Origin: Escherichia coli | GTDB lineage: Bacteria; Pseudomonadota; Gammaproteobacteria; Enterobacterales; Enterobacteriaceae | NCBI RefSeq assembly: GCF_003334255.1 | Contig: NZ_QOWU01000004.1 | DNA length: 64,000 nt | Direction: 5' to 3' (one strand) | In this document: positions 46,747 through 48,416 of the stretch, in pieces | Layout of the letters: each line of letters starts with the position of its first letter | Position numbering within the stretch: the first letter of the stretch is position 1 | Translations under genes and position numbers: made by a program | Notes under the pieces: model-generated | The model's database searches: none | What the model saw: the letters and a program-made list of their open reading frames with translations, nothing else | What the model was told of the DNA's origin: nothing

Positions 46747-47925
46747 ATGAGTAATATTGTTTACCTGACAGTAACGGGAGAACAACAAGGAAGCATCTCC
46801 GCAGGTTGTGGGACTTCTGAGTCTACAGGTAATCGTTGGCAGAGCGGGCATGAGGATGAAATATTTACATTCTCACTCTTAAATAATATTAATAATACGG
46901 GGCTTGGTTCACAGTTCCATGGTATAACATTTTGTAAATTAATTGATAAAAGCACTCCATTATTTATTAATTCCATTAACAATAATGAACAATTATTTAT
47001 GGGATTTGACTTCTATCGAATAAATAGATTTGGTAGATTGGAAAAGTATTATTATATACAACTAAGAGGCGCTTTTTTATCGGCTATTCATCACCAGATC
47101 ATTGAAAACCAACTGGATACAGAAACAATAACTATTAGTTATGAATTTATCCTCTGTCAACATCTTATCGCAAATACCGAGTTCAGCTATTTGGCACTCC
47201 CTGAAAATTATAACCGTTTGTTTTTACCAAATTCAAAAAACCAAACAAATAATCGTTTCAAAACGTTAAACAGCAAAGCTATTGGCAGGCTACTTGCTGC
47301 TGGTGGCGTATACAATGGGAACATTGAAGGATTCAGAGATACTGCGGAAAAACTGGGTGGAGATGCAATAAAAGGCTATGATCAAATACTAAATGAAAAA
47401 ACAGCGGGCATAGCGATAGCAACAGCATCTATTCTTTTAACAAAGCGTTCTAATGTTGATACATATACAGAAATAAATAGTTACTTAGGCAAACTTAGAG
47501 GTCAACAAAAACTTCTTGATGGTATAGACATAATAGAAATAATATACATTAAGAGACCTTCAAAAGACTTAGCTAACTTACGAAAGGAGTTTAATAAAAC
47601 TGTAAGAAAAAATTTTCTTATCAAACTTGCAAAAACCTCCGAAGCATCTGGAAGATTCAACGCCGAAGACCTTTTAAGAATGAGAAAGGGCAATGTTCCT
47701 CTAAATTATAATGTTCACCATAAACTATCTCTAGATGATGGTGGTACTAATGATTTCGAAAATTTAGTATTAATCGAAAACGAACCATATCATAAAGTTT
47801 TTACTAACATGCAATCACGAATAGCTAAGGGAATATTAGTAGGTGAAAGCAAAATCACTCCCTGGGCCATTCCATCTGGCTCAATTTATCCTCCCATGAA
47901 AAATATTATGGACCACACAAAATGA
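46747..47925 (+). CDS. yhhZ: Hcp-domain protein fused to a C-terminal HNH-type nuclease toxin domain (392 aa); orphan T6SS-style effector
   Basis: N-terminal ~150 aa has Hcp hallmarks (HEDEI, DKSTPLF, FYR); C-terminus carries an HNH-like motif NVHHKLSLDDGGTNDFENLVLIENEPYH; SD aagga 10 bp upstream; very AT-rich. Confidence 0.85.
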   Translation: MSNIVYLTVTGEQQGSISAGCGTSESTGNRWQSGHEDEIFTFSLLNNINNTGLGSQFHGITFCKLIDKSTPLFINSINNNEQLFMGFDFYRINRFGRLEKYYYIQLRGAFLSAIHHQIIENQLDTETITISYEFILCQHLIANTEFSYLALPENYNRLFLPNSKNQTNNRFKTLNSKAIGRLLAAGGVYNGNIEGFRDTAEKLGGDAIKGYDQILNEKTAGIAIATASILLTKRSNVDTYTEINSYLGKLRGQQKLLDGIDIIEIIYIKRPSKDLANLRKEFNKTVRKNFLIKLAKTSEASGRFNAEDLLRMRKGNVPLNYNVHHKLSLDDGGTNDFENLVLIENEPYHKVFTNMQSRIAKGILVGESKITPWAIPSGSIYPPMKNIMDHTK

Positions 47926-48416
47926 TGACTAAAACCCAAATAAATAAATTAATAAAAATGATGAATGATTTAGACTATCCATTTGAAGCACCGCTCAAGG
48001 AATCATTTATTGAAAGTATAATCCAAATAGAATTTAATTCTAATTCAACTAATTGCCTGGAGAAGTTATGTAATGAAGTTAGTATTCTTTTTAAGAATCA
48101 ACCTGATTATCTTACTTTTTTAAGAGCAATGGATGGATTCGAAGTTAATGGATTACGATTATTTAGCCTCTCGATTCCAGAACCTTCAGTTAAAAACCTT
48201 TTTGCCGTAAATGAATTTTATAGAAATAATGATGATTTCATAAACCCTGATCTACAAGAACGGTTAGTGATCGGGGATTATAGCATTTCAATATTTACTT
48301 ATGACATTAAAAGTAACTTTTTTGAAATTAGAGATAATATTGGCACAGAAAATATATTCAGTTCGTTTAGTGATTTCTCTTCATTCTTAAACGAAATCAT
48401 GGACAGTTGTTCATAA
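47922..48416 (+). CDS. yrhA: Putative immunity protein to YhhZ (164 aa, acidic, no signal peptide or TM); intact here
   Basis: ORF MMTKTQINKLIKMMNDLDYPFEAPLKESF...; ATG overlaps yhhZ TGA (ATGA), suggesting translational coupling; immunity role is inference. Confidence 0.75.
   Translation: MMTKTQINKLIKMMNDLDYPFEAPLKESFIESIIQIEFNSNSTNCLEKLCNEVSILFKNQPDYLTFLRAMDGFEVNGLRLFSLSIPEPSVKNLFAVNEFYRNNDDFINPDLQERLVIGDYSISIFTYDIKSNFFEIRDNIGTENIFSSFSDFSSFLNEIMDSCS

Follow-up and report, generated by a model that had tools for sequence, protein, structure and literature searches.

The yhhZ-yrhA gene pair in an AT-rich islet of Escherichia coli is very probably an Hcp-ET1/ETI1-type T6SS effector-immunity cassette

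In reviews of the T6SS, an orthologue of yhhZ is the founding example of toxin-carrying Hcp proteins. As secondary sources describe the work of Ma et al. 2017 (Virulence 8:1189, PMC5711352), Hcp-ET1 consists of an Hcp and an HNH-DNase and is delivered by T6SS2. The toxin degrades the DNA of the target cell and is neutralised by ETI1, an immunity protein encoded downstream. E. coli STEC004, C227-11, and 55989 are given as carriers of Hcp-ET1, and the reported identity of ETI1 is 99.4%. Here, we compare this system with the yhhZ-yrhA locus of an E. coli sequence of 64 kb (the window, meaning the whole stretch of DNA that was analysed).

The yhhZ gene (46747..47925, + strand) is an open reading frame of 392 aa with its stop codon at 47923-47925; we read its product as an Hcp-ET1-type specialised Hcp effector, and RefSeq labels it an Hcp1-family T6SS effector. 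The yrhA gene (47922..48416, + strand) encodes 164 aa with a pI of 4.3, a candidate ETI1-type immunity protein with a predicted SUKH fold. The sequence across the junction is ...ACAAAATGATGACT..., in which the ATG of yrhA (47922-47924) overlaps the TGA of yhhZ (47923-47925) to form ATGA (47922..47925, + strand). The RefSeq annotation of a genome that matches at 100% has both genes, again overlapping by 4 nt; the corresponding RefSeq proteins are WP_000065894.1 and WP_000988499.1. The coordinates of both reading frames in the original prediction were exact, the sequence and the RefSeq annotation bear out the stop/start overlap that it described, and the motifs that it quoted (GHEDEIF, IDKSTPLF, DFYRIN, and NVHHKLSLDDGGTNDFENLVLIENEPYH) all occur in the YhhZ translation.

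A reading frame of 392 codons far exceeds what chance would produce at 32-34% GC. The cluster of the 392-aa YhhZ holds 13,190 member sequences, and yhhZ is kept across genera under purifying selection. Omega, which was computable for some segments only and with dS saturated in several comparisons, was 0.17 for the toxin segment and 0.25-0.27 for yrhA, values that indicate purifying selection in both. The Hcp domain, when compared with Citrobacter, gave a dN of 0.13 with dS saturated, again indicating purifying selection.

Residues 1-150 of YhhZ (46747..47196, + strand) form an Hcp/TssD tube-protein domain. NCBIfam TIGR03344 matched residues 1-147 over model positions 1-161/167 with 118 bits (cut-off 58.9; E 3.8e-34), and a PDB search with the domain found Hcp3 (3he1) at E 3.7e-12. 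The N-terminal Hcp-like domain had been predicted from short motifs, and the search proposed at that time, with Pfam T6SS_HCP (PF05638), confirmed it at E 2.5e-11. In BLASTP, the domain was 37% and 30% identical to two T6SS2 Hcps of 55989, the 37% partner being the 160-aa Hcp of the T6SS2 operon. Homologues at ≥55% identity were Hcp-ET fragments and orphan Hcps only, with no canonical cluster Hcp among them. Alignment and a structure model delimit a linker or pre-toxin module behind the Hcp domain (residues 151-244, 47197..47478, + strand, with LNSKAIGRLLAAGGVYNGNIEGFR...), for which helices are predicted at low confidence (model pLDDT 46-75). The linker is also found in DUF8093-HNH proteins and in the E. 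coli Hcp-ET at ysgA-metE, which has a different toxin and matches at the DNA level in the linker only; the linker of the Hcp-ETs is reused as a module.

The remainder of YhhZ (residues 245-392, 47479..47922, + strand; pI 9.7) is a His-Me finger (HNH) nuclease toxin domain. Its catalytic-motif segment V323-H349 (VHHKLSLDDGGTNDFENLVLIENEPYH; 47713..47793, + strand) was recognised from the invariant columns of 71 diverse family members, namely H324, H325, D330, G333, N335, N339, L342, and H349. The HH dyad aligns with the 'LHHEKPIS...DN' segment of colicin E7, and the domain has the catalytic His, structural Asn, and metal-binding His of the beta-beta-alpha-metal fold. The HNH profile check suggested with the original prediction gave scores of varying strength: Pfam HNH (PF01844, clan CL0263) gave a partial match to YhhZ alone at E 0.013, while 13 of the 71 family members matched at E≤0.001 and 70 at E≤0.1. 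Colicin E7 was reached by the profile of the YhhZ toxin family at E 2.6e-4. In the other direction, of the colicin/pyocin DNase models (PF21431, PF12639), Col-Pyo_DNase matched YhhZ at E 1.9, below Pfam significance, and Colicin-DNase matched three of the 71 members at E≤0.1 and none at E≤0.001; YhhZ falls outside the colicin/pyocin DNases. Judging from its sequence, the domain would nevertheless work in the manner of a colicin DNase. These results support the predicted HNH-fold nuclease at the C terminus. The N-terminal partners of the toxin domain include LXG, PT-TG, PAAR, prePAAR, Tox-PAAR-like, MuF, Hcp, and DUF8093. The C-terminal nuclease domain of ∼140 aa thus belongs to a widespread polymorphic-toxin family, a large HNH family common to T6SS, T7SS (LXG), and phage MuF carriers.

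YrhA has the acidic, cytosolic profile that had been described for it: its pI is 4.31 and its top 19-residue hydrophobic window scores only 0.76, so that it has no TM helix. The proposed search for SUKH or Imm relatives failed at the level of sequence models but gained a different kind of answer from the predicted structure. Pfam SUKH/SMI1_KNR4 models did not match YrhA even at E≤10; three of 20 homologues reached SUKH_6 (best E 0.009), and nothing in Pfam was significant. PDB sequence and profile searches with YrhA returned chance matches to antibodies and MLH1 only. The predicted fold, on the other hand, superposes on 2icg, YobK (2prv), Smi1/Knr4 (3d5p, 5j1b), Syd, and RhsPI. This predicted fold allows YrhA/ETI1 to be assigned to the SUKH immunity superfamily, a relationship that the sequence models miss. 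NCBI keeps YrhA in a separate family (NF038335, 'YrhA family'), and some UniRef members are labelled 'SMI1/KNR4 family'. A yrhA-type gene always stands directly after the toxin domain, through swaps of the N-terminal domain.

The pair lies in an AT-rich islet between yhhY and ggt (46515..48900, no strand assigned), which was delimited by its composition profile and holds yhhZ, yrhA, and yrhD as well as the first part of yrhB. Its GC content is about 0.32, versus 0.50-0.58 in the flanks and 0.52 in the whole window. The corresponding stretch in O104:H4 has been called a genomic island, 'Gist34' (PMC3309015); the methionine-to-cysteine function given there for 'yhhZ-yrhAB' was dropped, since the names clash with those of B. 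subtilis yrhA/yrhB. The yrhD gene (48511..48666, + strand; RefSeq annotation) is an acidic reading frame of 51 aa and possibly a remnant; it has an internal stop in UTI89 and had no significant match among protein family profiles. At the islet edge, yrhB (48866..49150, + strand; 94 aa) is a second, orphan immunity-type gene of the Imm35 family, with a full-length match to Pfam PF15567 (E 4.6e-23, residues 5-83 on model positions 1-85/85), and is missing at the syntenic locus of Citrobacter koseri. Direct or inverted repeats bounding the islet were not found, only short AT-rich chance matches; a promoter/terminator scan gave counts no higher than shuffled controls, and an Rfam scan gave only sub-threshold snoRNA chance matches in AT-rich DNA. 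The window is collinear with NZ_CP035822 from envZ/ompR to livJ/rpoH at 99.98%, and no T6SS component is found among the genes annotated there across the window, every one of which is housekeeping. This agrees with the original prediction that the 64 kb hold no other T6SS gene. We are highly confident, as one joint claim with the Hcp-ET1/ETI1-type reading, that the islet is a small, horizontally acquired, AT-rich element that carries the yhhZ-yrhA cassette.

How close is this cassette to Hcp-ET1/ETI1? As in the published pair, an Hcp is fused to a C-terminal HNH-DNase and the immunity gene follows immediately downstream. At the yhhZ/yrhA locus of the carrier strain 55989, the products are identical to the window proteins at 391/392 and 162/164 residues, and yhhZ is the only Hcp-HNH locus found in this strain; searches at the DNA level brought up no second Hcp-HNH gene in E. 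coli. The reported 99.4% for ETI1 is compatible with 163/164 residues, and the gene number Ec154_00381 (immunity gene 00380) fits a minus-strand yhhZ ∼0.3-0.39 Mb from dnaA. Hcp-ET1 (AAF13_24945) is here equated with the yhhZ orthologue through reviews, a 2024 preprint, and genome comparison rather than through a locus-tag match. The toxin DNA matches at a second place in ∼800 genomes, and a second Hcp-HNH paralogue was therefore considered as the possible true Hcp-ET1 and rejected: the extra matches cover the linker only and belong to the other Hcp-ET at ysgA-metE, whose C-terminal domain is unrelated and which is followed by a gene for 81 aa. Thus, the domain calls and this comparison support the predicted Hcp-extended-toxin/immunity pair, and yhhZ-yrhA is in all probability a T6SS effector-immunity cassette of the Hcp-ET1/ETI1 type. 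The pair is real and, given this probable equivalence, not new. On the same footing, the earlier statement that its activity and immunity were not experimentally established does not hold in view of Ma et al. 2017, who are reported to have shown both for Hcp-ET1/ETI1.

In the mechanism that we propose, the Hcp domain would co-assemble with canonical Hcp into an inner-tube ring of T6SS2, probably with one Hcp-ET per hexamer and the toxin within the lumen. Contraction of the sheath would fire the tube into a neighbouring cell, where the HNH domain would cut DNA; H325 is the putative general base, and H324/H349 would bind the metal. Producer and sibling cells would be protected by YrhA bound to the toxin domain. 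T6SS2 would be encoded outside the window, at tRNA-Asp/yaf (aspV); 55989 has a complete cluster at tRNA-Asp. In the nearest sequenced relative with a complete genome, the aspV/T6SS2 site holds IS elements and a frameshifted Rhs only. Since T6SS2 is missing from this site, this lineage probably has no means to deliver the toxin. Expression of the AT-rich toxin gene is likely to be poor, and the cassette would mainly give immunity against E. coli armed with Hcp-ET1.

Of 5426 complete E. coli genomes, 3777 (70%) contain the toxin DNA and 2192 (40%) contain T6SS2 tssC, with at least 1585 genomes that have the toxin DNA and lack T6SS2 tssC; the effector is thus markedly commoner in E. coli than its reported vehicle. 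The yhhZ gene of UTI89 has a Y267* nonsense mutation with yrhA intact, K-12-type strains have an identical YhhZ protein and a yrhA cut after codon 130 by IS1, and insertions of IS1, IS5, and IS2 occur in the yhhZ locus and the sister Hcp-ET locus. That K-12 tolerates YhhZ with a cut yrhA implies that the toxin is silent, that it is weakly active in the producer, or that the YrhA fragment still neutralises it. Loss of the toxin in UTI89 and of part of the immunity gene in K-12 bears on the evolution of orphan effectors and immunity genes. The state of the T6SS2 site in the nearest complete genome, the genome counts, the UTI89 mutation, and the IS insertions, as well as the absence of T6SS from K-12 and B strains (PMC6730261) and a spontaneous Δ(yhhZ-yrhA) in MG1655 with no cost noted, would also fit a possible though doubtful account: the cassette is a stranded, decaying remnant of a lost T6SS2, its toxin neither expressed nor delivered, and is maintained by drift or by use of the immunity gene. 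However, the reading frame here is intact, like that of most carriers by far, all catalytic-motif residues are kept, and omega is well below 1 where measurable. Moreover, stranding would describe the present state of one lineage and is compatible with the identity of the cassette.

Retention without a T6SS could also be explained by a role independent of it, in toxin-antitoxin function, addiction, phage defence, or another export route. PADLOC, run on all four islet proteins, found no match to a defence system, the Hcp N terminus is complete and under purifying selection, and the published delivery is by T6SS2; that K-12 survives although its immunity gene is truncated speaks against an addiction module. 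We therefore consider such a role most improbable, even though the cassette is widely kept without T6SS2, the linker, toxin, and YrhA also occur behind DUF8093, in non-T6SS Enterobacter neighbourhoods and once beside an integrase, and Blondel et al. 2009 suggested that YhhZ is 'not linked to T6SS function'. DUF8093 replaces Hcp in the linker-HNH-YrhA unit of Enterobacter, Pantoea, Serratia, and Erwinia. These fusions, together with retention of the intact unit in well over 1000 T6SS2-less E. coli genomes, K-12 among them, suggest that the shared linker or DUF8093 could mark a second route; that either marks a second loading or export route, or that the toxin has an intracellular T6SS-independent function, seems unlikely on these sequence comparisons. 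It is very unlikely that the toxin is an RNase instead of a DNase: some His-Me/SUKH toxins (B. subtilis YobL/YobK, YxiD) do cleave rRNA, but the nearest sequence-profile relatives of YhhZ are colicin and pyocin DNases, and Serratia Rhs2 is listed as a DNase.

Read as an Hcp-ET1/ETI1-type cassette, yhhZ-yrhA can be set beside several known systems. The DNases of colicins E7/E9 and pyocins S2/AP41 are profile relatives of the YhhZ toxin, with an 11-residue deletion in the loop ahead of HH. Their immunity proteins are four-helix Im proteins (Im7/Im9-type), whereas YrhA is a 164-aa protein with a predicted SUKH fold, and colicins are imported through receptors, whereas YhhZ-type toxins would be delivered by a T6SS. 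Serratia marcescens Rhs2-CT/RhsI2 and other PAAR/Rhs-HNH effectors use Rhs or PAAR as the carrier in place of Hcp, and the YhhZ toxin has only marginal sequence similarity to them (8cm0/9t38, E 0.27). SUKH (Syd/US22/Knr4; SMI1_KNR4) members such as B. subtilis YobK and RhsPI are, like YrhA, encoded directly behind a nuclease toxin. Usp / Hcp-ET3-4 (UTI89_C0121) and the other Hcp-ET classes resemble yhhZ in that an Hcp with a C-terminal toxin is followed by an immunity gene. However, their toxins differ (pyocin S3 and colicin DNase, Tle1, peptidase, or a further domain), as do their immunity proteins. The sister E. coli locus at ysgA-metE has the Hcp domain and the linker in common with yhhZ. 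The closest system is Hcp-ET1/ETI1. T6SS2 is probably absent from the source strain of the window; the sequences of the presumed 55989 counterparts are practically the same, and both systems consist of an Hcp with an HNH-DNase and an immunity gene immediately downstream, as an orphan outside the T6SS clusters.

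The window is a stretch of E. coli chromosome, collinear with strain WS4437A-1 (NZ_CP035822) at 99.98% identity from envZ/ompR to livJ/rpoH. On its plus strand, yhhZ (46747-47925) and yrhA (47922-48416) encode proteins of 392 and 164 aa exactly where the original prediction had placed them, and the ATG of yrhA overlaps the TGA of yhhZ in an ATGA. RefSeq annotates an identical pair with an identical overlap. The pair lies between yhhY and ggt on a sharply bounded AT-rich islet, where the GC content is ~0.32 over ~46,515 to ~48,900 versus 0.50-0.58 in both flanks. The islet further contains yrhD (48511-48666, plus strand), a 51-aa acidic ORF without a family match, and yrhB (48866-49150, plus strand), which encodes an Imm35-family protein (Pfam E 4.6e-23). 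All remaining annotated genes in the 64 kb are housekeeping genes (feo, mal, rtc, glp, glg, asd, gnt, ugp, and liv), and T6SS components are absent from the annotated genes of the 64-kb window, as had been predicted.

yrhB is a second immunity-type gene, and a matching toxin was not found nearby. It is missing at the syntenic Citrobacter koseri locus; thus, the islet bears a small poly-immunity tail in E. coli. In UTI89, yrhD is a RefSeq pseudogene with an internal stop (locus L012, 2211-2366) and it may be what is left of another immunity gene, not a genuine gene. Elsewhere in C. koseri, ugpB and livF are separated by an inserted Fic / Phd-YefM-type toxin-antitoxin pair (locus L007, 19474-20060), where E. 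coli has intergenic DNA only.

Residues 1-150 of YhhZ form a complete Hcp/TssD domain, in keeping with the Hcp-like N-terminus of the original prediction: they match NCBIfam TIGR03344 (118 bits, cut-off 58.9; E 3.8e-34), Pfam T6SS_HCP (E 2.5e-11), and P. aeruginosa Hcp3 (3he1, E 3.7e-12). Searched alone, the C-terminal half gave marginal Pfam matches (HNH, E 0.013; Col-Pyo_DNase, E 1.9), so we gathered homologues. In Escherichia and Citrobacter, close relatives of residues 154-392 follow an Hcp domain; in Enterobacter, Leclercia, Pantoea, Serratia, and Erwinia, they follow DUF8093 (PF26362). Among 1.84 billion representatives, a profile built from 14 homologous C-termini matched 925 clusters (234 at E<=1e-30). 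Within these clusters only the last ~140 residues (YhhZ 245-392) align, always at the C-terminus of proteins of 130-1261 aa. In a Pfam census, this segment touched HNH in 70 of 71 full-length members. The N-termini of the 71 members include LXG, WXG100, and PT-TG (T7SS), PAAR, prePAAR, and Tox-PAAR-like (T6SS), Hcp, and phage MuF. Such varied N-termini before one toxin segment read as the signature of a polymorphic-toxin module. R279, F282, V323, H324, H325, D330, G333, N335, N339, L342, H349, Q356, and Y381 are invariant in the family set. The segment is basic (pI 9.7), and the profile matches the colicin E7 DNase (E 2.6e-4) with the YhhZ HH aligned on E7 'LHHEKPIS...DN'. Pyocins S2/AP41 and the HNH of Cas8f fusions were likewise within reach of the profile. 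The motif and the HNH-fold nuclease reading of the original prediction are thus borne out. Strictly speaking, the toxin domain does not belong to the colicin-DNase Pfam families.

YrhA has the expected immunity profile, being acidic (pI 4.31) and free of hydrophobic segments. It belongs to the NCBIfam 'YrhA family' (NF038335, E 1.7e-35) but has no match in Pfam and, by sequence, none among solved structures. A SUKH relationship emerged only from the predicted fold: an AlphaFold model (20 homologues; pLDDT 78.9, pTM 0.79) superposes on the SUKH superfamily, with scores of 11.4 for Lin2918 (2icg), 10.8 for B. subtilis YobK (2prv), 10.2 and 9.5 for Smi1/Knr4 (3d5p and 5j1b), 8.2 for FBXO3, 6.6 for Syd, and 4.9 for RhsPI, the immunity partner of an Rhs WHH toxin. 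We therefore assign YrhA a predicted SUKH fold. In C. koseri, the yhhY-ggt slot holds an Hcp-HNH gene together with a YrhA homologue of 68% identity; in Enterobacter roggenkampii, a DUF8093-HNH gene in an unrelated neighbourhood is followed by a 61%-identical one. Thus, the immunity candidate tracks the toxin domain rather than the delivery domain or the locus, in support of the predicted toxin/immunity pairing. Where dS is unsaturated, both genes are under purifying selection (omega 0.17 for the toxin versus Citrobacter; 0.25 and 0.27 for yrhA versus Enterobacter and UTI89).

The ATGA overlap is specific to E. coli. It results from a 9-residue C-terminal extension of E. coli YhhZ (PMKNIMDHTK, 47896-47925) that is missing in other genera; Citrobacter and Enterobacter (L007 and L006, ~11140-11163) have instead a 13-19 nt spacer between toxin and immunity genes. 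Translational coupling of yhhZ and yrhA through the overlap is plausible.

E. coli YhhZ was known as an 'evolved Hcp' that combines an Hcp domain at its N-terminus with an HNH domain at its C-terminus (Blondel et al. 2009, PMC2907695) and as the type of His-Me finger group 32 (Jablonska et al. 2017, PMC5714182). The most important of three prior works is Ma et al. 2017 (Virulence 8:1189), which defined the Hcp-ET proteins and characterised Hcp-ET1. [quoted passage not shown] At the 55989 yhhY-ggt locus, YhhZ is identical to the window protein at 391/392 positions and YrhA at 162/164. The preprint's ETI1 identity of 99.4% equals 163/164, and its gene numbers, 00381 (effector) and 00380 (immunity), fit a minus-strand yhhZ ~0.3-0.39 Mb from dnaA in many RefSeq genomes. 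O157:H7 is reported to lack Hcp-ET (PMC7216683) and also lacks the yhhZ locus. When the toxin region served as query in a sensitive DNA search, no other Hcp-HNH turned up in E. coli. Taken together, these results make it very likely that yhhZ/yrhA is Hcp-ET1/ETI1; the original prediction, which considered nuclease activity and immunity unproven, interpreted the sequence correctly but overrated the novelty of the pair. The ~800 extra DNA matches of that search were to the linker only and came from a different Hcp-ET, located at ysgA-metE, whose toxin domain is unrelated. The 'conversion of methionine to cysteine' ascribed to the E. coli yhhZ-yrhAB island (PMC3309015) reflects a name clash with the unrelated B. 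subtilis yrhA/yrhB, an error that could propagate.

We observed a three-part architecture in YhhZ, predicted HNH and SUKH folds, conserved catalytic residues, and toxin-immunity linkage. In the mechanism that we propose, the Hcp domain would join the T6SS tube by sharing a mixed ring with canonical Hcp; according to a 2026 structural paper, each hexamer has room for one Hcp-ET only (PMC13323088). The toxin would travel in the tube lumen and be set free in the prey cytoplasm, and YrhA would block it in kin cells. Of the two T6SS2 Hcps in 55989, the 160-aa one, which ends the core operon, shares 37% identity with the whole YhhZ Hcp domain; the 172-aa one, from the spike operon, shares 30%.

The preprint places T6SS2 at tRNA-Asp within yaf genes, and 55989 has its cluster there. 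In NZ_CP035822, the genome nearest to the window, tRNA-Asp/yafV (locus L014, 16394-29383) has only copies of IS1, ISEc1, and IS66, a frameshifted Rhs, and an 'RHS element protein dsORF-h1', an arrangement suggestive of a scar left when a T6SS2 spike operon was deleted. Toxin-coding DNA occurs in 3777 of 5426 complete E. coli genomes (>=80% coverage) and the T6SS2 tssC in 2192, O157:H7 strains without yhhZ included; thus, at least 1585 carriers have no T6SS2. K-12-type strains (CM13; locus L010, 1723-2865) encode a YhhZ identical to that of the window (WP_000065894.1), but their yrhA is cut by IS1 after codon 130, so that the SUKH fold lacks its last strands and its C-terminal helix. The window is the uninterrupted ancestral state of this locus. 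On the contrary, UTI89 (B2; locus L012, 447-2116) carries Y267* in yhhZ just upstream of the HNH core and an intact yrhA with 6 substitutions, a case of 'keep the antidote, lose the poison'. Both the distribution and the damage fit erosion of a stranded cassette, immunity often outlasting toxin. Silencing of the AT-rich islet is the obvious candidate explanation for how K-12-type strains tolerate an intact toxin beside a damaged immunity gene.

The cassette may possibly be an inert remnant in this lineage: that view is compatible with all findings and concerns the cassette's present state, not its identity. The toxin could conceivably be an RNase, since rRNA is cleaved by YobL and YxiD, two His-Me toxins paired with SUKH proteins, but the reported DNA degradation and the affinity to colicin DNases make this improbable. 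We give even less credence to a T6SS-independent toxin-antitoxin or defence role, which has no positive support, finds no PADLOC match, and sits badly with the survival of K-12 with a broken immunity gene. The preferred reading is an Hcp-ET1/ETI1-type T6SS effector-immunity cassette.

Related cassettes occur elsewhere. In E. roggenkampii and metagenomes (L004, L005, and L006, 10001-11663), linker, HNH toxin, and YrhA-type gene are joined to DUF8093 (PF26362), not Hcp, between thiamine-salvage and sucrose-utilisation genes and once beside an integrase, with no T6SS genes within 10 kb. The sister Hcp-ET at ysgA-metE (E. coli MFDS1022581; locus L011, 4114-6831) shares the Hcp domain and linker (LNSKAVGRLLAAGGIYNGNIEGFRE...) with YhhZ; its C-terminal domain is unrelated, an overlapping 81-aa ORF lies downstream, and the locus is broken by an internal stop and IS2. 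The RefSeq 'HNH endonuclease' label on its 3' fragment is apparently due only to the shared linker.

With yhhZ/yrhA, the window holds one more copy of an effector-immunity pair that had been characterised before, and RefSeq annotates it accordingly. To the known Hcp-ET1/ETI1 system, our analysis adds the predicted SUKH fold of YrhA/ETI1, the modular linker and the variants with DUF8093, and the finding that carriers of the effector outnumber those of T6SS2.
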